From the IMG/VR virus record IMGVR_UViG_3300037067_026753: 61,485 bases of DNA, one strand, 5' to 3'. Both the position numbers and the translations under genes were made by a program. Every line of letters begins with the position of its first letter. The stretch's first letter is position 1. Below are positions 11,866-59,240 of the stretch, in pieces. Origin of the DNA: a virus. The notes under the pieces were generated by a model, which was not told the DNA's origin, did not search any database, and saw only the letters and a list, made by a program, of their open reading frames with translations.

Positions 11866-12446
11866 TTTTGCTCCTTGCAGGCTTGTATTATAAAAGCTTT
11901 ATATTCCTCTGGTGTGCTTCTCTGATAAGAAAACACATAGCTTGGATGCCATATAGATCTAATAGGTATTTTTATATTGTTCTCTAGACATAGATCTAAT
12001 AGTATTTCAAAAACTTGTCTGCCCATAGCAATAATGATATGAGGTTTCAAGACATTAATTTCTTCTAATAAAAAAGAGAAGCAAGCTCGAGCACAAGAAT
12101 TATTTATCGCATTAGTAGATGTAGAGCAGTGAATTACATTGTCGCAAAATATCTCGTCAAACATACCTGTTTCTTTTAAGAGGTTGTTAAATTTTTCACC
12201 AGGCCCAGGGCTACCATTTACTCCTCCAAATGCGTATTCATGTCCAGCAAATCGGTTGTATGAAGGATTCATCCCGATAAACATAAAGCGGCACTTTTTA
12301 GTGCCGCCTCTCCAACCATAAAGTTTTCCAAAACCTTTAGAAATATCTTTTTTGTTTTCTTCTAGATTACATAACTCACACTTAGTACAGACTTGAATTT
12401 TTTCATTAATCTTTTTTAAGCCGTTTTCTACTTTTGGACTGAACAT
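11862..12446 (-). CDS. Uracil-DNA glycosylase superfamily protein (family 4/5-like, Cys cluster)
   Basis: FMFIGMNPS resembles the GE(A/G)PG motif A. WHPSYV resembles the HPSP motif B. N-terminal cysteines CTKCELC. Confidence 0.5.
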   Translation of the reverse strand: MFSPKVENGLKKINEKIQVCTKCELCNLEENKKDISKGFGKLYGWRGGTKKCRFMFIGMNPSYNRFAGHEYAFGGVNGSPGPGEKFNNLLKETGMFDEIFCDNVIHCSTSTNAINNSCARACFSFLLEEINVLKPHIIIAMGRQVFEILLDLCLENNIKIPIRSIWHPSYVFSYQRSTPEEYKAFIIQACKEQK

Positions 12447-20217: not shown

Positions 20218-20997
20218 TCAGTTGAAGAAGGAGTTATTCGCTCCGCCGACGGTTGTCTGACTGGTTCTTATGACGGATTTGCTCACCAGATCGACAGTCC
20301 TGCGTATTTCGCTCTCGGTAGCGTCAACTGTCATTTTGTTGATGAACCCGACGGAATCAGCAATTGCACCAAGATCATCATTGGGATCCTGCTTATAACC
20401 GATATAAACAGGGTAGAATCCCTCTTTTTTCAGTGATGCATCGACGACTGTTTTGCAATCGTCAGCTGAATGCTTGCGCGAATCATTATCGTCACCATCT
20501 GAAAAAACTGCAATGATGATTTTTGACCGTACACCACTACTCTTCAGATCCTTGGCGTAAGCTTGCGCTCCGGTCAATGCATCCATAAGAGCATCATACA
20601 GCGCCGTTGAACCACCTTTTGCAGCATACTGTTTTTCGATGGGACCGATATCTGTGGATTTTTTGAACCCATGGAGGATGGTTGCCCGTGTCGAAAAAAC
20701 AACCGTACTCACGAGAATCGAGCCACCCTGTTTTGAGCCTTTGAAGGAATTGATGAATTTGTCGTAGCATTCCCTGACGGTATTCTCATGCATGTTCATC
20801 GACAATGAACCGTCAAGGAGCACCTTAACCAGGGTGACATCGTCCGTTTCGATATCATCTACCGAAGCGCCCAAGCACCCGGTGAGATTTGTTCCGTTCA
20901 AACTGTTGATCATCAATGCTGATGCGGCCGGATCCATTGTCTGATCGTTCTGAAACAAGGATTGAATATCACCAACAGTTGGTTGACTTCCTGCCAT
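20218..20997 (-). CDS. von Willebrand factor A domain protein (TerY-like)
   Basis: MIDAS motif LLDGSLSM (DxSxS) and a downstream AVFSDGDDND. The region has elevated GC. The tracked ORF starts at 21108; an internal Met with a GGAAGG RBS at 20997 is the likelier start. Confidence 0.55.
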   Translation of the reverse strand: MAGSQPTVGDIQSLFQNDQTMDPAASALMINSLNGTNLTGCLGASVDDIETDDVTLVKVLLDGSLSMNMHENTVRECYDKFINSFKGSKQGGSILVSTVVFSTRATILHGFKKSTDIGPIEKQYAAKGGSTALYDALMDALTGAQAYAKDLKSSGVRSKIIIAVFSDGDDNDSRKHSADDCKTVVDASLKKEGFYPVYIGYKQDPNDDLGAIADSVGFINKMTVDATESEIRRTVDLVSKSVIRTSQTTVGGANNSFFN

Positions 20998-21016
20998 ATT
21001 AAACCGCCTTCCTATT

Positions 21017-21958
21017 TTAAAAGATTTTGTCTGTGCTATTGACGATGTGTACGCCTTCTTTGATGAAGCCGTCGAACTGTGCTTCAGCAATAGCATCGAA
21101 ATCGACATCCGGATTCTTGACCGAGCTCATGCAGTTTCTCAGGATCCATATCTTCTCGAGAATTGCAGTCTGTCCCTTGAAGAAAGCGATCAGCTGCCTG
21201 AGGGATTCAAGCACGCAGTGCGACTTTGCTTCGCCGACGACTATGATTTTGTCGTATTTCCCGAGTACATTGCAGAATCCCGTATTGATACCGGATGCCC
21301 TGGGGTTTTTGGGTACCAGGACTTCGGGCCGGAAAATACCATACATTTCGGTTTCCGGTACGTCGCCTTTGATTTGGAAACTGATTTGCGACCGGCGAAT
21401 CAATGCGTGGTAGTAAAGGATTTCATAGAGCGCCGGTACGAGAGCATGTCCCGGTGTACCGAGCATGGTGTGTTCCGGCCAGATAATCAGGGGCTGTTTG
21501 GTTTGTGCTTCGAGTGTTTTGATGTAATCAAGCGACCATACAGGGTCGATGACCGGTTTGAATTTGCCTTTTTCCACGTCTGCGGCCGTGATGAACGTGA
21601 ACGGCGCCGGATGCTGACCTTTTTCATCGAGCCACCAGTTCCCGTAGAAAATTTGGAAAACCAGGTGGGTATCGAGAGTTGGATAGATTGTTGTGATTCT
21701 ATCCATGTGCTCGAGAATGAAATCGATAATGTTGAACATATCCATTTCAGCATTATCAACGTACAGTTGACCGGTAGGCCGTGGGCAACAGAAATCCACC
21801 TGACAGTCAATTGCGAGTAATGCCGTTCTCTGTCCAGGTTTATCCATTACCGATGGTATTGGAGTAAGGCGAGCGGCCTCTTCCTTTACCCTGGTGATGT
21901 CTGGGACATATAGAGCCCCAATCTTCGACTGATCAAAGAAACTTGGTTTGGACGCCAT
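21017..21958 (-). CDS. Isochorismatase-family cysteine hydrolase (nicotinamidase PncA-like)
   Basis: ALLAIDCQVDF (compare ALLVIDMQNDF) and IVVGEAKSHCV (catalytic Cys region). Confidence 0.55.
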   Translation of the reverse strand: MASKPSFFDQSKIGALYVPDITRVKEEAARLTPIPSVMDKPGQRTALLAIDCQVDFCCPRPTGQLYVDNAEMDMFNIIDFILEHMDRITTIYPTLDTHLVFQIFYGNWWLDEKGQHPAPFTFITAADVEKGKFKPVIDPVWSLDYIKTLEAQTKQPLIIWPEHTMLGTPGHALVPALYEILYYHALIRRSQISFQIKGDVPETEMYGIFRPEVLVPKNPRASGINTGFCNVLGKYDKIIVVGEAKSHCVLESLRQLIAFFKGQTAILEKIWILRNCMSSVKNPDVDFDAIAEAQFDGFIKEGVHIVNSTDKIF

Positions 21959-21971
21959 ATCTGAACTCCTT

Positions 21972-23846
21972 CTATTTAATAAGTCTTAAAAATTTGGCAT
22001 CATGTTCCGAAACAGCTAATATTCCATCTTTATATATTGACAAAGAACAACCTGAGTCAACAAATTGTTCAGTTTCTTTCTTGAGAGTAAATTGTCCTTT
22101 TCGCTCGATTACTATCCCGGCATCCGTAGGATGTACTATAGAAGAACCGAGTAGAATTTTCCCTTCGATAGTTTTCAAGAATGGAGAACTTATTGATTCT
22201 TCTTTTTTAGAATCGAGAATTTTTCCTTCATCATCAATCAAATAATAATAGGAATAAGTTCGACCTTTGTCCAAAGTTTTAAATAAAAACAAGACAGTAC
22301 CTCTTGAAATTTCAGCACAATACTCAATAAGTTGTCCTTGAATCGAAGGAATTGCAGTTTCGTATCTACCTTTACCTGAAAAAACTACAAAATAGTATTG
22401 TTGGAATATCCTGTAAAACAAGATACCAAGACCGGATGGACCTACTGCAAACCATGTTTGATTTTGAAGCGTTTGCATTACGACAGTATCAGTCAGATTG
22501 CCTTGTACGACTTCTGTCGCAATCAAAGCTTGATCCGTCAAACGGTATAATTTTGAACCGCTACAACCAATCATAGTCTTATGGTCAAATTGTAATGTTG
22601 TTGTCTTTGCTACAGGTTTGAGTTGATTACCAGCAAGTTCGACGACCATGAGGTAGTTTGTTCCCACGACAAGGTAATTTTTGAAGAAATCAAAAACCGT
22701 ATCACGTTTATGGCCATCCCAAATTTTGTGGGTGTATCGAGCTTTTTCTGTTATTTCATGCACTTTGGTTTGACTACCAGCATATTCAACGATAATTACT
22801 CTATTGTCCTCAAGAACTTTAGAATAGAGTATTGAACCCTCGGTTTTAAATATTGTTTCAGACAAACATTTACCTGCATCTACGGTATGAGTAACCACTA
22901 TATGGGTTATGAGTGGTGCTGGTTGAACTGTTGTAACAAAGCACACAGGACATTTCGCTCTTCCTTTATAATACCAACCGTTACATTGATTGCATTTTTC
23001 AAATTGGTTTTTATGTGCTGTTAAAAGAGCAGCCGGTATATCAACCCTTTCGCCAAGCCTGAATATTTTGTCAAAGATGTCAAGCAATTCTGGGCTTATA
23101 GTTTCAGGTTTATTCGAAATCCTTGGATATGTTACTGAAGAATCCATGATATAGATTTTTCTTCTTGCTCTTTCGACAATAGAATCGTAGGTTGCATGAG
23201 TGCCGCCATAAGGGTGTGCTAAAAGTAGACATTTGAAAAGCATGACGGCAAAACTATACCAATCTGTTTCTTTTGTGAAATACGGTTTATCAGCAAGATT
23301 GAGCCCGTAAAGATTTGGATCAAGATAAGTATCTGTTCCTACAGCACATGGCCAATCACCAACCTGGAACGAATCGACATCTATGTAAATAGAACCAAAT
23401 TTCGGGGTAAACATTACATTCAAATCGTTATTGTCTCCGATAAATAATCTTGGTGCAACATGTATTGCATCCATTGTCAGTTTTGAGTCTACAAAAAAAT
23501 CAATAATATCATTAGGAGTGATTTGTTCTGTTTTCCTGAATTGTTTATTGGAAAGATTGATTACTTCTTTACCTTTTGCTAAAGGCATGGAAAATCCCAC
23601 GATGTCATTACCTCTTGCGTCCAAGATGACATCAATGGGATAAGCTATATTTGTTGGGAGTTTAAGACTTGAACCCACTTTTATAAATGCTAAAAGTTTC
23701 TCAGCCCTCGTTTTTGATGGTTGATGATAAACTTTTAGAGCTACTCCTTTATGAAGGACTACAGTAGCTTCACCACCGACACCTAATGCACTGGTATCAT
23801 CTACTAAGATCTTGTCATTCTTGTAGATTACTGTTTTGGTCGCCAT
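21972..23846 (-). CDS. Ser/Thr protein kinase-like protein with central zinc ribbon and C-terminal beta-rich domain
   Basis: Gly-loop LGVGGEATVV, VALKVY (VAIK-like) and DVDSFQVGDW (DFG-like). CNQCNGW...CPVCF zinc ribbon. Confidence 0.5.
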   Translation of the reverse strand: MATKTVIYKNDKILVDDTSALGVGGEATVVLHKGVALKVYHQPSKTRAEKLLAFIKVGSSLKLPTNIAYPIDVILDARGNDIVGFSMPLAKGKEVINLSNKQFRKTEQITPNDIIDFFVDSKLTMDAIHVAPRLFIGDNNDLNVMFTPKFGSIYIDVDSFQVGDWPCAVGTDTYLDPNLYGLNLADKPYFTKETDWYSFAVMLFKCLLLAHPYGGTHATYDSIVERARRKIYIMDSSVTYPRISNKPETISPELLDIFDKIFRLGERVDIPAALLTAHKNQFEKCNQCNGWYYKGRAKCPVCFVTTVQPAPLITHIVVTHTVDAGKCLSETIFKTEGSILYSKVLEDNRVIIVEYAGSQTKVHEITEKARYTHKIWDGHKRDTVFDFFKNYLVVGTNYLMVVELAGNQLKPVAKTTTLQFDHKTMIGCSGSKLYRLTDQALIATEVVQGNLTDTVVMQTLQNQTWFAVGPSGLGILFYRIFQQYYFVVFSGKGRYETAIPSIQGQLIEYCAEISRGTVLFLFKTLDKGRTYSYYYLIDDEGKILDSKKEESISSPFLKTIEGKILLGSSIVHPTDAGIVIERKGQFTLKKETEQFVDSGCSLSIYKDGILAVSEHDAKFLRLIK

Positions 23847-24579
23847 TTTGTTTCTCGATTACTATGCAAGTTGCGTCATCCCCAAAGAGTTTTTGATCAT
23901 GCCACAAATTGAACTTTCTTTGAAGTTGACGTTTGTGCGTTCCATATAATTGCGAATCTAATCCATTATCAATAAGAGGCTGAATTCCATCTGTCCCTAT
24001 GATAATGGAATCAATTTCGTTTTGATCAAAAACTTTTATTGTAAAAAAACTAAGTTCAGTTGGCCGTTTTTCAAGGGCTTCTTTGGGTATGGCCTTGTAT
24101 GCAATATATTCAGGTGTTCCTGCTTGATGAATTTCGTGTATTTGTTTATTTAAAATGATGATTCCATCACCACAATTTCCGACAATTACTTTGTCGTTTA
24201 CCAAGATAGTAAACAGACATGTACTCAAAAGCATTTCCTTGACAAAGGAAATGCGTTCTGGTACCCAAACGTCATCAAAGAACAGAACCCCGAGAAGACG
24301 TTTTACAAAAAGATCTAATTCATATTCGATTAAATCTTTTAAACGTTCGGAGTCAATGACTTTGAATTTAGCATCTTGTAAAGTTCGCACAAAATTTACA
24401 ATATATGTGCCTATGAGAGTAGCACCCACTTCCGAATATTTACTTTCCCCACACCCATCGCACACTGTCGCTACTAAAAGCTCTGGTGTTTGATGGGAAT
24501 GAGCAAAGTCCTGCCTATTCTTAAATGAGAGCTGATGGTCTCGACCGACAATAGAAGCAGTGTTAATAAACCAATTCAA
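23815..24579 (-). CDS. PP2C-family Ser/Thr phosphatase
   Basis: VCDGCGES resembles the DGxGG metal site; IIIGTDGIQ resembles the C-terminal SDG motif. Confidence 0.55.
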   Translation of the reverse strand: MNWFINTASIVGRDHQLSFKNRQDFAHSHQTPELLVATVCDGCGESKYSEVGATLIGTYIVNFVRTLQDAKFKVIDSERLKDLIEYELDLFVKRLLGVLFFDDVWVPERISFVKEMLLSTCLFTILVNDKVIVGNCGDGIIILNKQIHEIHQAGTPEYIAYKAIPKEALEKRPTELSFFTIKVFDQNEIDSIIIGTDGIQPLIDNGLDSQLYGTHKRQLQRKFNLWHDQKLFGDDATCIVIEKQNGDQNSNLQE

Positions 24580-43652: not shown

Positions 43653-44495
43653 TCAATTTTTTGTCTTTTTTTTGCATCTTGTTATATAAAAATCTAACAT
43701 ATAAGTTTTTATCCATTTGTTGACTTTTTGAGTTTTTATTTTTAAAAGCTTTGAAACCTCACTTACCCAACCATTTTTTGAAAAATCTATAGAACTATTC
43801 TCAATTATCTTTATTTTCTCAAATTGCTTAAGTAATTGTAATAAAGATCTTATCTTAGATTTCTGCTGTAATTTAAGTTTTTTAGAATTATCTCTAGCTA
43901 TTCTTAAAGTTTTGTTTTTAAGCATATGATTTTCAAGAGATTTCTGAACATACTCATATTTATCCAAACTACTTAACAAATCTAAGAATGAATTGATTTT
44001 TTCTTGATTTATTTCGTTATAAGCAATTCTTACGACTTTCCAACCTTTCAATAACAAATGCTTATCTTTCTCTAAGTCATGTTCAAATCTAGTATTCCCA
44101 TGCGAAAAATGTGCTGGTCCATCAAGTTCAATAGCAAGTTTTATATTGACAAATGCAAAATCAATAAAATATGGAAATTCAGCATATTCACTTACAATGT
44201 CATATTTTTCGTTTAAGTTAAATTTCAAAATAACTTTGTCTATAAACCATTGCTCTAAAGAACTTGGGATCTGTTTACTTCTTTTTTCCCAAGCTGTTTT
44301 ACCTGTCCGCTTTTTAAGATATTCAAATCTTGCTTTTCTAATCTTATTTTTTGTTACAGTTGTGTGTTTAAAAATTTCTGGATGTTTCAAGTGCAACAAC
44401 TTAAAGGCTTCAGATAGAGATCTACATTTATCTCTTAGAGCTATTGTTACTAGATCTTTGGGATAACCTATTTTTATAATTTCACCAGAAGACAT
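43653..44495 (-). CDS. Vsr/DUF559-like (restriction-endonuclease fold) homing-endonuclease-like protein
   Basis: C-terminal IELDGPAHFSHGNTRFEHDLEKDKHLLLKGWKVVRI. It is a paralog of 54168..55100 and sits next to the tRNA array. Confidence 0.45.
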   Translation of the reverse strand: MSSGEIIKIGYPKDLVTIALRDKCRSLSEAFKLLHLKHPEIFKHTTVTKNKIRKARFEYLKKRTGKTAWEKRSKQIPSSLEQWFIDKVILKFNLNEKYDIVSEYAEFPYFIDFAFVNIKLAIELDGPAHFSHGNTRFEHDLEKDKHLLLKGWKVVRIAYNEINQEKINSFLDLLSSLDKYEYVQKSLENHMLKNKTLRIARDNSKKLKLQQKSKIRSLLQLLKQFEKIKIIENSSIDFSKNGWVSEVSKLLKIKTQKVNKWIKTYMLDFYITRCKKKTKN

Positions 44496-48068: not shown

Positions 48069-49084
48069 CTTTTTCTAAGTGTTCGTTCATAATCTTCAAA
48101 ACGTATTTTTGCGATTTTTGAACGCTGTTCTGTTCGAACTACAACTCCTTCAGGTTTTCCCAATGCATCATTTTCAAGCAAAGCGTTTGACATGCCCGGG
48201 AGCAGATTTTTCAACCAATCATAAGTCCCTTGAATGGTTTGTGGTGGACATGCTCCAATAATAGAAGGCACTATTAGACATCTTATATCTGCTGCTACAC
48301 TTGCAATTGTTCTGACTCCAACAAAATTTTGTCCCCCATTATCTCTCCAAGCAGCTATTTTTTCTATGGGCAAATCAAGTAAATCTTCAAACTCTTTTGC
48401 TTCCATCATTATGACATCAAACAACCTGAAACCAAGTTTCCCTGTTTTTGTATAATTTTTTGCCGTTCCTGCTTTACCCCCATAAACTTCCCCAAATAAT
48501 ACAAAAACAGATTGTTCAAGTTGGTCCCAGTAAATTCTTCTTGCATTGTCAGCCACAGTTTGAATTGTATCAACAATATCTAATGTAGGATTATGAATCC
48601 AATCTCCAAAACCATAAAGAAGTTCTTCACGAGAACCAATTAGATATGTCCCTTTAGGAAACAAAATAATACGAGCATTTGTACCATCAATTTTCTCAGA
48701 AAGAAAAATTTCGTCATCTGCTGAAAAAGATACAAGAACTTCTTCTTTCAAAGAACCTCTATCCCCAAGAGCATGATATGTAAGAATACTTGGGTATTTT
48801 GTAGCCGAATTGATTTTTTTCAAATCAAAAGCTCGCATATTCACACAATATTTACCATAATCAGGATTATGTTTCTTCATAATGTCGTATGTTGCCGGTC
48901 TTACTTTCCAGCCTACATTGTCGCAATTACCACAAGCTATACTCATGCTCATAGCAGCTACATCACCTGGCATAATTTCTTCGCTATTACAATTAGAACA
49001 AGTCATTACTACAAATGCTGACGGTGGACAAATCTTACCCTCATGCTTTATACCACAAAAAATACAATGCTTAGCTTCACTCAT
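48065..49084 (-). CDS. ATP-dependent RNA ligase (Rnl2-like nucleotidyltransferase) with an N-terminal zinc finger
   Basis: Motif I EKIDGTNARI (compare Rnl2 KIHGTN). N-terminal Cys clusters CIFCG...CP, CSNCNS and CGNCDN. Confidence 0.55.
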   Translation of the reverse strand: MSEAKHCIFCGIKHEGKICPPSAFVVMTCSNCNSEEIMPGDVAAMSMSIACGNCDNVGWKVRPATYDIMKKHNPDYGKYCVNMRAFDLKKINSATKYPSILTYHALGDRGSLKEEVLVSFSADDEIFLSEKIDGTNARIILFPKGTYLIGSREELLYGFGDWIHNPTLDIVDTIQTVADNARRIYWDQLEQSVFVLFGEVYGGKAGTAKNYTKTGKLGFRLFDVIMMEAKEFEDLLDLPIEKIAAWRDNGGQNFVGVRTIASVAADIRCLIVPSIIGACPPQTIQGTYDWLKNLLPGMSNALLENDALGKPEGVVVRTEQRSKIAKIRFEDYERTLRKR

Positions 49085-49850
49085 TCTCTTTATCCCCTGC
49101 AGCCATAGCCTTTATGACTTCATTCAACACCGGTGCTTGACATTCTCCTGGTTTTGTAGCAGTAAGCTCTACTCCTGCATTTTCTGCAAAAAACATATCA
49201 CCCTGATTGAAACGTAGAGCATCAGCTTGCTTGCACTTCTCTATCCATTCTTTAAAACCATTTTCATAATCATCGGTTAGACTGGAAAGCCATTTGAAAA
49301 ATTCTTCCAAAGTCGAAGGAAGTACGCCCACCCAATCAGAACCATAGTCATAAGGGCCCTGTGTTTGCTCATCCCAATAATCTATATGTTCTGATTCTCC
49401 ATTTTCAAGATAACGATCTATATAATGTTTTCCTGTATGATCACTACCAGAAAACCAAACTTCGTCATCTTTGGGCTCGCGTCCAAGTGATTTAAGAACT
49501 TCAGTCACTTTATCTTTATAGCCTGCACAACCTATGCCAGCAAAACGATGATAAACAGGTTTTTCAGGTTCTTTTTTATAATCAGTACAACTTGCATAAA
49601 TAAAAATGCCGTTTTGAGGACCTCTGATTGATACAATATCAAATCCTGCAAGTTGTACATCTCCTGAATTTATTGCTGCAATTGTTGGCTTTGTAAAATC
49701 ATGTTCTTCATGCCACATTTCTTCGCTCGAAACATAAGCCCAATTTTTATAAATTGAAATTGAAGATTTTAATTTGTAATGATTGAACGTGCCATTACAA
49801 GCTTGAGCGTCAGAATTAAAAGCTAAACAATCCCAATTTGAGAGTGCCAT
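49077..49850 (-). CDS. Hypothetical protein (257 aa)
   Basis: ORF from the supplied track. Confidence 0.5.
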   Translation of the reverse strand: MALSNWDCLAFNSDAQACNGTFNHYKLKSSISIYKNWAYVSSEEMWHEEHDFTKPTIAAINSGDVQLAGFDIVSIRGPQNGIFIYASCTDYKKEPEKPVYHRFAGIGCAGYKDKVTEVLKSLGREPKDDEVWFSGSDHTGKHYIDRYLENGESEHIDYWDEQTQGPYDYGSDWVGVLPSTLEEFFKWLSSLTDDYENGFKEWIEKCKQADALRFNQGDMFFAENAGVELTATKPGECQAPVLNEVIKAMAAGDKENE

Positions 49851-49871: not shown

Positions 49872-50696
49872 TCAATCCACGAATTTTACATTTGCCCTTG
49901 CACGTGCTTTGGATTCAGTATTGACAAGTACTTTATGCCATACGCTTCCAAGATTCACAGTAGCATGTTCTTCATGCGAAATTTTGCCCTTGGCATACAC
50001 ATTGGGATCAGCCATCATAGAACGGTAACGCTTTGCACTATCAGGTTGCTCTTTTAAGAGCTTTTGATAATCTTTCACTTCAATAACGTTACTCCCAAGA
50101 ACATAAACTTGTCTTCCACCTACTCTGTACAAAAATTCAGCATAGTGAAAGTGAGAACCTCCACCTCTCATCGGTTCGTTCTTCCAGACTTTTGTCAAGT
50201 TCCCTTTGGGCGGCTCAAAATTCGGTTGAGGAACAAACATGAATTCGCCTTGACGGTGAATTTTCTTTCCCGACTTCAAAAGACGGTGTCTCTTATGCGC
50301 ATTCTTTTTGTTGACACCCTCTTTCGATTCAATGTCAATAAGTTCTTTGGGTTTTAAAGCTTGTTTGGCACCAATTACCGTAGTAACTCTTGAAGATTCA
50401 GGGATAGCACAAGTGAACCAGTGACGTTCATCATGTCCACAAAGAAATTTCGACTTGATTTCGCTTGTCTTATCGCCTTTTCTGTTGATAACAGGTACTT
50501 TTGTCATCAAAAGCAAATGTCTGTCAGCTTTTTGAGCATCAAGAATCAACATTTCTATTTCTTTTGTGACTTGAAGCTCAAAATACTCGCCTTCACTGTC
50601 TCTTCTGACATCAATAGAAAAACCATCTCTACGTGGCTCAATGACTTTTACTCGAGCCCCGATTGCTTCGAATTTCTTTTCGATTGTTGTTGTCAT
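49872..50696 (-). CDS. Hypothetical protein (274 aa)
   Basis: ORF from the supplied track. Confidence 0.5.
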   Translation of the reverse strand: MTTTIEKKFEAIGARVKVIEPRRDGFSIDVRRDSEGEYFELQVTKEIEMLILDAQKADRHLLLMTKVPVINRKGDKTSEIKSKFLCGHDERHWFTCAIPESSRVTTVIGAKQALKPKELIDIESKEGVNKKNAHKRHRLLKSGKKIHRQGEFMFVPQPNFEPPKGNLTKVWKNEPMRGGGSHFHYAEFLYRVGGRQVYVLGSNVIEVKDYQKLLKEQPDSAKRYRSMMADPNVYAKGKISHEEHATVNLGSVWHKVLVNTESKARARANVKFVD

Positions 50697-51705: not shown

Positions 51706-51990
51706 ATGCAAATCTCAAAAGCATCAGATGATCTTTATCGTATTGTTATTACCTTCGACGCAAAAGAAGACACAGATGTTGCACGACAAACATGTTTCTT
51801 CCAATTAAGAGATTTGAATAATATTTACAAAATCAAACCAAGAGGAAAACAAAGAGTCAAATCAATAACTATTGAGCCGTTCAATAAAAAGAAACTAGAG
51901 CCCAAAGGCCCTAGTCCCGATCGAGACACACGTTCCAATAGATGTAGTCAACCCAAGTCTCGTGCGGTATCTCAGCATCGAGCCTCCTGA
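51706..51990 (+). CDS. Possible small plus-strand protein
   Basis: AAGGAAA RBS before the ATG at 51706. The 3' end runs antisense into the HNH gene, so the true extent is uncertain. Confidence 0.3.
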   Translation: MQISKASDDLYRIVITFDAKEDTDVARQTCFFQLRDLNNIYKIKPRGKQRVKSITIEPFNKKKLEPKGPSPDRDTRSNRCSQPKSRAVSQHRAS

Positions 51991-52465
51991 CAACCTGAAT
52001 TGGTGCGGATTTGCTAAGACGAGGAATATAAGGTTTCCTTATCAAATCCCTTTTATAGTTCTTAACATGCTTGCAACCTTTTTGCCCATTGCATCTTATG
52101 CAGCTCACTACAATGTTGTCCCACCAAGTCTTACCGCCGTCTTGCCGTGGAATTACATGGTCAAACGTGAAATTTGAAAGAGTAACCTTCTTACCGCAAT
52201 ACATGCAACATCCAGCATCTCTGAGATAAACATTTTTCCTTGTAAAAGGAAGCACGTTTGTAAAATGCTTTGGTACATAGTCAGAGTCAATGCACTTGAT
52301 CACTGAAGGTATCGGCATTACAAAATTTACTCCACAGAATTTCTGCTCATAGTTTTCTAAAGCAATAGCTCTCTGTGTTGAGACTAATGCAATAGCCCTA
52401 CGAGTTGAGACAATTGAAACTGGGATCATACCGATATTGAGCATTAAAGTTTGCATAATGGACAC
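51911..52465 (-). CDS. HNH endonuclease
   Basis: CMYCGKKVTLSNFTFDHVIPRQDGGKTWWDNIVVSCIRCNGQKG. Confidence 0.7.
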   Translation of the reverse strand: MSIMQTLMLNIGMIPVSIVSTRRAIALVSTQRAIALENYEQKFCGVNFVMPIPSVIKCIDSDYVPKHFTNVLPFTRKNVYLRDAGCCMYCGKKVTLSNFTFDHVIPRQDGGKTWWDNIVVSCIRCNGQKGCKHVKNYKRDLIRKPYIPRLSKSAPIQVVRRLDAEIPHETWVDYIYWNVCLDRD

Positions 52466-54132: not shown

Positions 54133-54204
54133 TAGCGGGGGAGAGAATCGAACTCCCACTCTTTGGGTTATGAGCCCAATATCTTGCCATTAGAAGACCC
54201 CGCA
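54133..54204 (-). tRNA. Initiator-type tRNA-fMet (anticodon CAT)
   Basis: Positions 2-7 are GCGGGG, pairing with CCCCGC. Positions 1 and 72 are unpaired (U and U). The anticodon arm is TTGGG-CTCATAA-CCCAA with three G-C pairs next to the loop. It is near-identical to E. coli tRNA-fMet as I recall it. Confidence 0.7.
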
Positions 54205-55100
54205 AATTTCAAAGTATCTGACAATTTCAATAAGCACTTATCAATGTCTTTTTTTACTTCTGAAGCAGTAAAACGTAACACTTCCCAACCATTTGATTTA
54301 GACCAGTTATCTCGCTTCTGATCTTTTTGTTTTACTACATCAAGTTCATGACTCTTTCCATCAATCTCTACATCAACTTTTATATCAACAAAAGCAATGT
54401 CATATTCATAAATTCCAATTTGATATCTTGCTGTCCATCCAGATATATTATTTTTAATTAAAGCTTGTTTAAATAATTCTTCGACATAAGAAAGTTTTGA
54501 ACTGTGATATAAACGATAAGGTAATCTATCAGGGTGTTCGCTAAAAAACTTAATTGCATGTTTTGAAATTTTTTGTTTTGCTTGTTCTGACAAATGTACT
54601 TTCTTTTTACAATTTTTCAAAGCGATTCTAATAAGTTCGACACCAAATAACTTTCTAAGCTCTTCTTTTGATTCTCCAAGTTCCCATCTGTTTTTGATAT
54701 TCTGTATAATATTTGGATAATTTTTGATTAAATATGCTGCACATTTTTTCTTGTGCTTTGAAAAATTCCCTTTATTGAAATCTCTACCACAAACACACTG
54801 TACTTGCTCTCTAAATCCATAAAAACCTATTTTTGTCGATTTCTTTCTTTTGCAACTTGCATGAGAACATTTTTGACTTTCACTTATTGTTCTTTTTGGA
54901 GTGTTCCTTAGAGCATAAACTATAATTTTTTTAGAAATTAGTCCTTCTTGTCGAATTTCATTTATAGACATACCAGAATTGTATTTTTTAACAATCTCAT
55001 CATAACTATCAATTGACAAATTACATCTTGAATTATGTTGAGTACAACCTGATTTTGTATTGAAACTCCTATTACATTTTTTGCAAAAATACATATTCAA
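54168..55100 (-). CDS. Vsr/DUF559-like homing-endonuclease-like protein with N-terminal zinc fingers
   Basis: N-terminal CKKCNRSF...CTQHNSRC. C-terminal DVEIDGKSHELDVVKQKDQKRDNWSKSNGWEVLRF. Paralog of 43653..44495. The 3' end overlaps tRNA-fMet. Confidence 0.5.
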   Translation of the reverse strand: MNMYFCKKCNRSFNTKSGCTQHNSRCNLSIDSYDEIVKKYNSGMSINEIRQEGLISKKIIVYALRNTPKRTISESQKCSHASCKRKKSTKIGFYGFREQVQCVCGRDFNKGNFSKHKKKCAAYLIKNYPNIIQNIKNRWELGESKEELRKLFGVELIRIALKNCKKKVHLSEQAKQKISKHAIKFFSEHPDRLPYRLYHSSKLSYVEELFKQALIKNNISGWTARYQIGIYEYDIAFVDIKVDVEIDGKSHELDVVKQKDQKRDNWSKSNGWEVLRFTASEVKKDIDKCLLKLSDTLKFAGSSNGKILGS

Positions 55101-58425: not shown

Positions 58426-58498
58426 TGTTAGCGAAAGGACTTGAACCTTCAACCGACAGATTATGATTCTGTTGCTCTACCAATTAAGCTACGCTAAC
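58426..58498 (-). tRNA. tRNA with CAT anticodon (elongator Met or Ile2/lysidine type)
   Basis: Acceptor GTTAGCG/CGCTAAC, A73, anticodon stem ACAGA/TCTGT with loop ATCATAA, T-loop TTCAAGT. Confidence 0.7.
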
Positions 58499-58784
58499 AT
58501 GACACTAAAAAACGCATTTTTGCGTGTTTATCCTCACTCTCAAGTTTTTTATTCTCGACAATCATAAACATATCTAACAAGGGTTCATATTGAACTTTCA
58601 ATTGTATTCTATCATTACAATCTATATAAACAGGTTTCTTAAAACTTTCTTGATAATGTCGTAAATTCACGGGGTCTCCTCCCCAATCTAATTTAAGTCT
58701 ATAGGGAGAATAATTAAACTGATGAGGATCGCCTTGGAGAACCTTTTTTACTTCATCAGATGACATATAACATCGAAAACTCAT
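58494..58784 (-). CDS. Hypothetical protein
   Basis: The tracked ORF starts at 58817, inside the tRNA-like locus. Internal Met 58784 is the likelier start. Confidence 0.4.
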   Translation of the reverse strand: MSFRCYMSSDEVKKVLQGDPHQFNYSPYRLKLDWGGDPVNLRHYQESFKKPVYIDCNDRIQLKVQYEPLLDMFMIVENKKLESEDKHAKMRFLVSC

Positions 58785-58790
58785 AAATTT

Positions 58791-59023
58791 TGCCCTTGGT
58801 GGGATTTGAACCCACATAACATTGATTAGAGTTCCTCTTTGGAAACGCGATTCCTGCCGCTGTTTACAAACCCTCCAAAGCTGTCGCCAGATCTTTGGCA
58901 GCGTATCAGTTCTGCCGCAACCATGGAACTCGCCTAAGAACAGTTTCCCGTTCGGTCAATGCCCTCCGTTAAGAGTCACGGTCCGTTTTTCCGAGTGCAC
59001 TTTCCATTTTATGCTACAAGGGC
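58791..59023 (-). ncRNA. tRNA-like gene whose perfectly matching acceptor halves are separated by an insert of about 160 nt (intron-containing tRNA or tmRNA-like RNA)
   Basis: The 5' part, GCCCTTG-TA-GCAT-AAAATGGAAA-GTGC, at 58996-59023 forms an acceptor 5' strand and a full D-arm. The 3' part, GTGGG-TTCAAAT-CCCAC-CAAGGGC-A, at 58791-58815 forms the T-arm and a 3' acceptor strand with 7/7 complementarity to the 5' strand. The interval between them is GC-richer than its surroundings. Confidence 0.5.
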
Positions 59024-59076
59024 CTAAAATTTAAAAATTGGTTGCATCTGAGTTATCAATGCTGTTTTTCTTTTTG

Positions 59077-59185
59077 ACAGTTCTTGAGACTGTTGCCTGA
59101 ACCAGTTCGGCTAACCCGGCACCCAATTGACATAAGCTCAGCCACAATCAACTGAGTGCCGGGTCTTGGATTTGAACCAAGATAA
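59077..59185 (-). ncRNA. Candidate circularly permuted tRNA-Leu(CAA)-like gene
   Basis: Reading the minus strand, the order is: T-arm CTTGG-TTCAAAT-CCAAG, then 3' acceptor strand ACCCGGC plus A, then a 33-nt linker, then 5' acceptor strand GCCGGGT, TA, D-arm GCC-GAACTGGTTCA-GGC, and the anticodon arm ACAGT-CTCAAGA-ACTGT. The acceptor halves are exactly complementary, and there are flanking A5/T5 tracts. Confidence 0.45.
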
Positions 59186-59240
59186 AAATGTAAGCACTAA
59201 TTGTTAAAAGATACAACCAATTAATTTCAAAGATCAAATT

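Follow-up and report, generated by a model that had tools for sequence, protein, structure and literature searches.

A tRNA-shaped RNA gene with a conserved long arm in the tRNA array of a large uncultivated phage, a candidate non-decoding tRNA mimic

Element B, the subject of this work, lies at positions 58791 to 59023 on the minus strand of a 61,485-nucleotide (nt) stretch of viral DNA (IMG/VR record IMGVR_UViG_3300037067_026753), which we refer to as the window. Its homologs and the covariation among them indicated that 59023-58791 is one RNA gene within a phage tRNA cluster, 233 nt long from G1 to the discriminator A. As judged from these comparisons, the balance tips modestly towards a single gene for a non-decoding tRNA mimic, which would be a two-module adaptor with a rod as its effector. 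An earlier reading of the letters (the original prediction) had noticed here a tRNA-like gene whose two halves were separated by an insert of about 160 nt. The window itself is a piece of a large phage genome without a close cultured relative; the best match of its DnaE protein among GenBank phages was 32-34% identical.

The tRNA-like half of element B and its homologs

At the DNA level, the 5ʹ half of element B reads GCCCTTG-TA-GCAT-AAAATGGAAA-GTGC (59023-58997, minus strand) and the 3ʹ half reads GTGGG-TTCAAAT-CCCAC-CAAGGGC-A (58815-58791). In the RNA, the acceptor 5ʹ strand GCCCUUG (59017-59023) pairs at 7/7 positions with its partner at 58792-58798, as had been predicted. The D-arm GCAU-AAAAUGGAAA-GUGC (58997-59014) comes with U8, A14, G18G19 and A21, and the T-arm GUGGG-UUCAAAU-CCCAC (58799-58815) has a canonical loop and the G53-C61 pair. 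The gene closes with the acceptor 3ʹ strand CAAGGGC and the discriminator A at 58791 (together 58791-58798), and CCA is not encoded. A test against the cloverleaf found the acceptor stem, the D-arm and the T-arm in place and the anticodon arm replaced. The stretch from the D-arm to the T-arm measures 181 nt (58996-58816), which bears out the large insert, while the predicted size of about 160 nt is valid only after subtraction of an anticodon arm. The stretch has a G+C content of about 50%, compared with roughly 32% in the background, so that its description as G+C-richer was correct.

In the window, element B was not called by ARAGORN in its default mode, by Rfam at gathering scores or by the tRNA model RF00005. 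When the Rfam threshold was relaxed to E<=10, a check that the original prediction had proposed with tRNA, transfer-messenger RNA (tmRNA) and group I and II intron models, the bare T-arm alone was matched. A scan of the tRNA strand for perfect T-arms returned two outside the called tRNAs, namely that of element B (58815-58799) and one in its neighbour, element A (59181-59165).

The homologs were reached through a neighbouring gene, a downstream open reading frame (ORF) for a 96-amino-acid (96-aa) protein (58494-58784, minus strand) that lies outside the RNA. This protein had one homolog, 85% identical, on the JGI contig L010, which carries a syntenic copy of element B of about 90% identity. 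A block of 93 nt was identical between the window and L010, though the flanking protein is just 85% identical. Elsewhere in L010, a hairpin capped by GAAA was deleted and several substitutions broke two pairings that had first been proposed by eye. The 18-nt word GGAGGGTTTGTAAACAGC, taken from the identical block, then led to divergent relatives in JGI metagenomes (L011, L014, L015, L022 on a 442-kb contig, L024 and L031), the remaining 14 metagenome matches being due to chance, and to one relative in IMG/VR, L032, which is equal to L031. The same architecture was present in six further lineages, all from metagenomic phage tRNA arrays (L010, L011, L014, L015, L022 and L031/L032); L024 is also homologous, with a truncated 5ʹ end. 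All homologs lie in a tRNA array and on the tRNA strand, and the size of the element ranges from 216 to 284 nt.

Other searches returned no further relatives. Two patterns containing most of GGAGGGTTTGTAAACAGC had no match in GTDB (one genome per species, 185,579 species), blastn against 50,697 GenBank phage records gave no match, and no Rfam 15 family matched element B. A neighbour-protein search and several exact DNA words yielded no useful match in IMG/VR. The word TACATTTTTATCTTGGTTC found only chance AT-rich matches, and the first matches of a word spanning the T-arm and acceptor were ordinary tRNA-Leu and tRNA-Thr genes.

Acceptor 5ʹ strands in the family read GCCCUUG, GCCCCUA, AUCCCUA, GCCCUCG, GUGGCCG and GUGGUCG, and each pairs perfectly with a 3ʹ partner 180-240 nt away. 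Compensatory changes were found at 7/7 acceptor pairs across seven sequences; the D and T stems also covary, and the elbow nucleotides are kept in the D- and T-arms of the family. In the alignment of the acceptor, D, T and core helices (alignment A1), 95.9% of cells were paired, in comparison to 37-46% when the partners were slid. The two halves belong, as had been proposed, to one tRNA-like gene with a structured insert; the idea that they are unrelated pieces is contradicted by pairing that is conserved in homologs of differing sequence.

We also noticed a resemblance of the body of element B to tRNA-Leu(UAA) genes on the unrelated viral contigs L001-L004 (e.g. L001 10080-10165). The window copy shares its acceptor, T-arm and discriminator (27 nt) with them letter for letter, and its first 12 nt as well, and the variable arm of these genes, AGAGGACUCU.., is similar to AGAGGAACUCU in element B. 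The body of element B may be derived from a type II tRNA-Leu.

The anticodon-position hairpin and the long arm

The site of the anticodon arm is occupied by the hairpin CUCGG-AAAAACGGA-CCGUG (58977-58995), with an A-rich loop, AAAAACG, that contains no anticodon; the original prediction, too, had found no anticodon arm by hand. In the family this hairpin starts 0-1 nt past the D-arm, its stems covary (CCAG/CUGG, CCGU/ACGG, UCAU/AUGG and CCGC/GUGG), and its loops of 7-11 nt, either AAAAACG.. or ACAAACA, lack both U33 and an anticodon. The absence of these features from the loop that follows the D-arm suggests that the RNA is non-decoding. The hairpin is followed by a linker of 13-16 nt across the family, which in the window could form a small hairpin, CUC-UUAACG-GAG (58963-58976), recognised by eye and weakly supported. 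It holds a heptamer resembling an anticodon loop, CUCUUAA, and a G to A change in L010 lies in its loop.

Beyond the linker begins the long arm, a mostly unbranched helical structure of 110-200 nt at the position of the variable arm of a type II tRNA. Its base is the helix Pv1, in which GCAUUGA (58956-58962) pairs with UCAAUGU (58819-58825), and the 3ʹ strand ends 3 nt short of the T-arm. Pv1 is found at the same site in the family with differing sequences (GCAUUGA/UCAAUGU, ACGUCAA/UUGACGU, GCAGUA/UACUGC and GGCAUGA/UCAUGCC), distinct complementary sequences occupying the matching site in L014, L011 and L031. A partner of at least 6 base pairs (bp) was present in 5/7 sequences; in shuffled sequences the mean was 1.55, and 2/500 shuffles reached five. 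Lineage-specific branches lie between Pv1 and the next helix, Pv2. The window has here an optional GAAA-capped hairpin, GAACGG-GAAA-CUGUUC (58938-58953), which is the one absent from L010, and other branches are present in L011, L022 and L014.

The inner 105 nt of the arm are the best-conserved part of element B. This core (58828-58932), defined by alignment A3 and the covariance model R1, consists of stacked covarying helices round an invariant internal loop of 9x9 nt, and it is capped by a GNRA tetraloop. The outermost helix of the core, Pv2 (58925-58931 with 58829-58835), has compensatory changes in 6/8 pairs, e.g. AGAUUC/GAAUCU in L011 and AGACUC/GAGUCU in L024. In Pc1, formed by GGUUGCGGC with GCGGCAGGAAUC (58914-58922 with 58849-58860), one pair passes from C-G through U.G in L024 to U-A in L011, and an extra C-G is inserted in L015/L031. 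The internal loop is made up of AGAACUGAU (58905-58913) and UUGUAAACA (58861-58869), and throughout the family A(A)GAACUGAU faces UUGUAAACA with no variation. The next helix, Pc2 (ACGCUGCC with GGAGGGU, 58897-58904 with 58870-58876), is invariant and therefore uninformative with respect to pairing. The tip (58877-58896) follows the pattern NNNN-AU-CYG-GNRA-CRG-NNNN with many compensatory changes. The invariant words of the core, ...ACUGAUACGCUGCC / GGAGGGUUUGUAAACAGCG.CAGGAA..., are set within these covarying helices, and in alignment A3 94.7% of cells were paired, with compensatory changes in 13/29 pairs.

The covariance model R1 was built from the core only and not from full-length element B. 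It scored 115 bits in the window and 102-115 bits over the loci, with exactly one match per homologous locus and no other match in 195 kb, the T4 tRNA cluster included.

Several other structures for this region were considered and rejected. An extended anticodon stem, CUCGGAAA/UUUCC-AAA-GAG, is broken by the changes in L010. The hairpin GGCAG/CUGCC, together with an alternative that uses the second GGCAG repeat, is contradicted by L011 and L015; these hairpins were dropped because pairing of the two repeats in Pc1 better explains the changes in L011 and L024. An 11-nt GAAA tetraloop-receptor for UAAGG/CCUAAG was suggestive; the window deviates from it and the GAAA hairpin is missing from L010. 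For CUGAUA as part of a hammerhead or as a C/D-box, the needed partners were absent and there was no Rfam match. As to an antisense directed at ribosomal RNA (rRNA), the invariant segments were no more complementary to E. coli 16S, 23S and 5S rRNA than shuffles were.

Element A and the surrounding tRNA array

Directly abutting element B on the same strand is element A (59030-59231), which has the organization of a tRNA mimic that is circularly permuted and whose acceptor stem is closed. All four arms are present in the permuted order; the break in the molecule falls in the variable region, and a stalk of about 35 bp sits where the variable arm would be. The stalk 5ʹ strand is followed by the T-arm (59181-59165), the acceptor 3ʹ strand (59164-59158), a closing hairpin (59157-59121), the acceptor 5ʹ strand (59120-59114) and then UA, the D-arm (59111-59095), and an anticodon-type arm ACAGU-CUCAAGA-ACUGU with the loop CUCAAGA (59093-59077), after which comes the stalk 3ʹ strand. 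The fold of element A had a z score of -6.7, and no bulge-helix-bulge motif was seen in it by eye.

Six copies of element A adjoin element B, one each in the window and L010 and two each in L011 and L024. In their alignment 95.7% of cells were paired and 24/42 pairs had compensatory changes; the copies agree in the D- and T-arms and in the stalk motifs and differ in the acceptor stem, and the closing loop is 3-36 nt long. Orthologous copies in L011 and L024 share the same acceptor stem and have different anticodon loops (CUGAAGA vs CUUGAAA; CAGUAAA vs AUAUGGA), which argues against a decoding role. A covariance model of element A, R2, scored 131 bits in the window and found these six alone, at 97-132 bits, its lower matches being junctions of neighbouring normal tRNAs.

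The order of permuted tRNA genes, known from Cyanidioschyzon, some green algae and archaea, is similar: their 3ʹ half lies upstream of the 5ʹ half, and the acceptor is closed by intervening sequence. Element A differs from them in its bacterial host and phage context, in having no evident bulge-helix-bulge, and in a break that falls in the variable region and carries the stalk of about 35 bp.

B-bearing arrays hold several non-canonical tRNA-like genes. Canonical T-arms outside called tRNAs were noted at L015 1100-1185 (minus), L022 12718-12800 (plus), L011 1660-1740 (minus), L024 3221-3237 and L015 191-207. One such tRNA-like gene of L022 has a 7-bp acceptor stem (GGGCUGG/CCAGCCC) and an aberrant D/anticodon region, and another orphan T-arm comes directly after element B in L015. 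A motif, TTCTTTGA(A/C)A, recurs immediately upstream of element B, of element A, or of the tRNA that precedes element B (window 59225-59235; L010 ~2528-2538; L022 ~12232-12242; 13-30 nt upstream of element B in L014, L015 and L031). It is similar to a -35 element; a scan for consensus promoters and terminators found nothing above chance.

All 17 tRNAs called by ARAGORN in the window are on the minus strand, between 44.8 and 61.3 kb. Near-identical copies of the window contig come from four samples, and its gene products include DnaE, NAD synthase, ThyX, RNA ligase and several DUF559/HNH endonucleases. The ORF next to element B had been called with 107 aa (58494-58817), its start codon falling inside the T-arm, and was suspected of a wrong start; the ATG at 58784 gives a protein of 96 aa, the length of the database cluster P0001, and the 85%-identical homolog P0002 has 90 aa. 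The corrected start is 6 nt past the discriminator of element B (window 58784-58798), a layout kept in L010, so that the acceptor 3ʹ strand (AAGGG) comes to lie at the Shine-Dalgarno position.

Farther away, the tRNA-array region contains an RNA ligase gene (PF09414; 48065-49084, minus strand) beside two unannotated ORFs (49077-49850 and 49872-50696) with no Pfam match, and these three could form a tRNA-repair module. Genes of DUF559- and HNH-type endonucleases are interspersed among the tRNA genes (43653-44495, 51911-52465 and 54168-55100, minus strand) and look like homing endonucleases. At 20218-24579 (minus strand) lies a cluster for a vWA-domain protein, a protein-kinase-like protein (624 aa) and a PP2C phosphatase. 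Genes similar to TnpB/Cas12f (OrfB_IS605) were noted in L011 (6185-7315) and L022 (640-1716 and 6900-8207), and their distance to element B is not constant.

What element B may do

The RNA that we propose would arise as follows. Element B is probably co-transcribed with the surrounding tRNA array, with which it shares the strand and a tRNA-like spacing. RNase P and the 3ʹ-end tRNA-processing enzymes would excise it, because it presents the acceptor/T-arm stack and the elbow that they recognise. The product would accumulate as a stable RNA of about 230 nt, unspliced and untranslated, whose tRNA body may serve as a handle for processing and stability and might also let a tRNA-binding factor dock, while the invariant internal loop of the arm would bind the real target, a protein or an RNA. 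Element B probably works with the adjoining permuted, closed-acceptor mimics (element A), and it may be an adaptor in the style of the bacterial Y RNAs such as YrlA.

YrlA (RF02553) is, like element B, a tRNA mimic in which conserved D- and T-arms and a stem resembling the acceptor are combined with a long helical module, in YrlA a protein-binding one. It often occurs as two adjacent non-coding RNAs, as do elements A and B, and its order of T-arm, closed acceptor stem and D-arm is that of element A. In M. smegmatis, RNase P cleaves a YrlA with a 7-bp acceptor stem, to which CCA is added in vivo (PMC4201824). However, element B keeps the normal order and its acceptor ends are free, and element A differs from YrlA by its closed anticodon-type arm and by a stalk that leaves from the variable-arm position and not from the anticodon stem. 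The model RF02553 matched neither element, its sole weak match spanning two adjacent normal tRNAs in L015, and the Ro60-binding motif of the 5ʹ-end region, searched as the regular expression GNCGAAN0-1G, was missing from element B and occurred in element A only inside the D-arm of two L024 copies.

A number of observations weigh against a conserved non-decoding adaptor. The comparisons comprise 7-8 sequences from about four clades, and informative changes in Pc1 and Pc2 are few or absent. The anticodon-position hairpin is imperfect in the window, with one U-U, and is nearly lost in L010. Adjacency of the two elements was found in four loci that amount to two lineage pairs (window/L010 and L011/L024), and element B stands without element A in L014, L015, L022 and L031. 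No conserved partner protein is encoded adjacent to element B; the proteins common to related loci are a distant AAA ATPase, TnpB copies and one protein of 149-163 aa, at variable distance. For an RNA of the YrlA type, a Ro60 (TROVE) gene would be expected within about 4 kb; Pfam scans of 48 window ORFs, and of a few ORFs shared by related loci, returned no such domain, some small ORFs within 4 kb of element B and the rest of each phage genome lying outside these scans. The discriminator A73 is shared by four lineages, and the window copy agrees exactly with tRNA-Leu(UAA) of unrelated viral contigs in its acceptor, its T-arm and its first 12 nt.

The last two observations would suit an RNA that is aminoacylated, perhaps Leu-like, and engages EF-Tu or the ribosome with its free acceptor end, or one that is a decoy for host enzymes or toxins acting on tRNA ends or elbows, with the arm as a modulator. 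All members have an intact 7-bp acceptor stem with free ends, and the anticodon is not read by LeuRS, SerRS and AlaRS. The acceptor sequences and discriminators (A, U or C) differ among the members, however, so that no single synthetase identity set is conserved, and it is the arm, not the acceptor end, that is the most conserved part. We regard a charged RNA or decoy as possible, on the unlikely side.

A more speculative reading would join the two elements in a phage RNA device that handles tRNAs or tRNA-binding machines, element B clamping the elbow of a tRNA or of element A. The invariant internal loop contains two U-G-N-N-A pentamers on opposite strands, UGAUA and UGUAA, and as a speculative lead these liken it to the elbow-docking module of RNase P, the ribosomal L1 stalk and T-box leaders. 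The published core of that module is AG..A plus UG..A, unlike two UGNNA (PMC3664808; PMC4810234). Such a device, proposed from motifs in the letters, must be counted as a long shot.

The original prediction had offered two identities for the locus, a tRNA with a self-splicing intron or inserted element and a small RNA resembling tmRNA, and neither fits well. According to the first, element B would be a tRNA gene cut by a self-splicing intron, either of group I or of a small class not yet described, or by some different insertion that can be removed, and would decode after removal. In its favour, the structured insert is rich in G+C and has GNRA loops, an RNA ligase gene is present in the phage, and ARAGORN with its intron option did join the halves, as a tRNA-Gly(tcc) with a 146-nt intron. 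Of the anticodon stem that results, however, 3/5 pairs are standard and 2/5 are mismatched, the nucleotide at -1 is G and not U, and the L010 changes in this stem are uncompensated, the homologs giving the pairing no support. In no homolog do the flanks come together as a 5-bp stem closed by an anticodon loop of 7 nt, and the site after the D-arm is already taken by the hairpin with its non-anticodon loop. There was no match to Intron_gpI (RF00028) or Intron_gpII (E<=10 on the window region; E<=5 on L010, L011, L014 and L015). To our knowledge, the smallest known group I introns are roughly 200 nt, and the insert of element B is smaller. The same insert is kept in six bodies with differing acceptor stems and discriminators, which would be unexpected for an intron of a single tRNA species.

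Bacterial tRNA genes with group I introns are known and escape standard annotation (PMC13011429). Those of cyanobacteria, Patescibacteria and others share with element B the halves split by a structured, G+C-richer insert and the failure of default finders; in element B, however, the insert lies outside the anticodon loop, no catalytic core is matched and the exons form no anticodon arm. An intron-containing tRNA is accordingly improbable in our estimation.

The tmRNA reading, considered weak already when it was proposed, is still less probable. Element B would be a small, atypical tmRNA that is charged, enters stalled ribosomes and adds a short tag (AAKDLATALEGL). As in tmRNA (RF00023), acceptor and T-arm ends enclose a large structured insert, and huge phages have been reported to encode tmRNAs. 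The predicted frame, A-A-K-D-L-A-T-A-L-E-G-L-stop, is indeed present at RNA positions 122-160; as GCU GCC ... up to an invariant UAA it is open in 5/7 sequences, and the L014 peptide equals that of L015 (AAWDLVTAQEGL) if UGA is read as Trp. However, the G3:U70 pair is missing from 7/7 sequences, as had been noted for the window, position 3:70 being C-G in five sequences and G-C in two. The tag lacks the usual Ala-Ala end, also as noted. A 5-nt insertion shifts the frame in L022 and a UGA stops it at codon 3 in L014. The last four codons, GAG GGU UUG UAA, are invariant at all three positions and the variable codons change by stem compensation, which indicates selection on the RNA and not on the peptide. 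The agreement between L014 and L015 upon reading UGA as Trp we attribute to a covarying stem, CCUGAG/CUCAGG vs CCUGGG/CCCAGG, and not to coding.

Structurally, the full D-arm and the anticodon-position hairpin are unlike the tRNA-like domain of tmRNA, and element B, at 216-284 nt across the family, has no series of pseudoknots and no conserved tag ORF. ARAGORN -m returned nothing, and with the tmRNA models of the Rfam clan CL00001 the match was confined to the 17-nt T-arm, which RF00023 scored at 14 bits (gathering score 47). Finally, a chance juxtaposition of two unrelated tRNA fragments with junk between, or a decaying pseudogene, is hardly credible: a 7-nt complement within 250 nt is in itself not rare, but the covariation in seven sequences, the invariant core and R1 scores of more than 100 bits in every homolog speak against it.

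Another comparison for the adaptor reading is provided by the T4 stable RNAs C and D (species 1 and 2 RNAs, rnaC/rnaD), which are tRNA-like and lie inside a phage tRNA cluster, as element B does. Their function is annotated as unknown, and rnaC ends in a T-arm and an acceptor-like strand. Both are reportedly excised by RNase P and 3ʹ-processing enzymes. They are shorter than element B (119-139 nt), with no D-arm evident by eye; neither R1 nor R2 had a specific match in the T4 region, and there was no sequence similarity to the T4 RNAs.

Mimicry of tRNA is a recurring route into the translation and RNA-processing machinery, as in tmRNA, Y RNAs and the tRNA-like structures of plant viruses. While tRNA-mimic non-coding RNAs are already known, the layout and core of element B match no Rfam 15 family, GenBank phage or published account that we found. 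What is new in the layout is that a tRNA top half of normal form, its ends free, lacks an anticodon and is combined with a strongly conserved rod at the place of the variable arm, and the family occurs so far only in tRNA arrays of large uncultivated phages. If element A were indeed opened by RNase P and given CCA, it would be the first split (two-piece) tRNA-like molecule from a bacterial virus. The 'tRNA arrays' of phages thus contain genes other than those for tRNAs, which default annotation overlooks. With two covariance models and compensatory pairs at hand, the question becomes approachable by experiment, and the family offers a concrete candidate for a phage RNA that may act on host tRNA biology or on tRNA-targeting defences.

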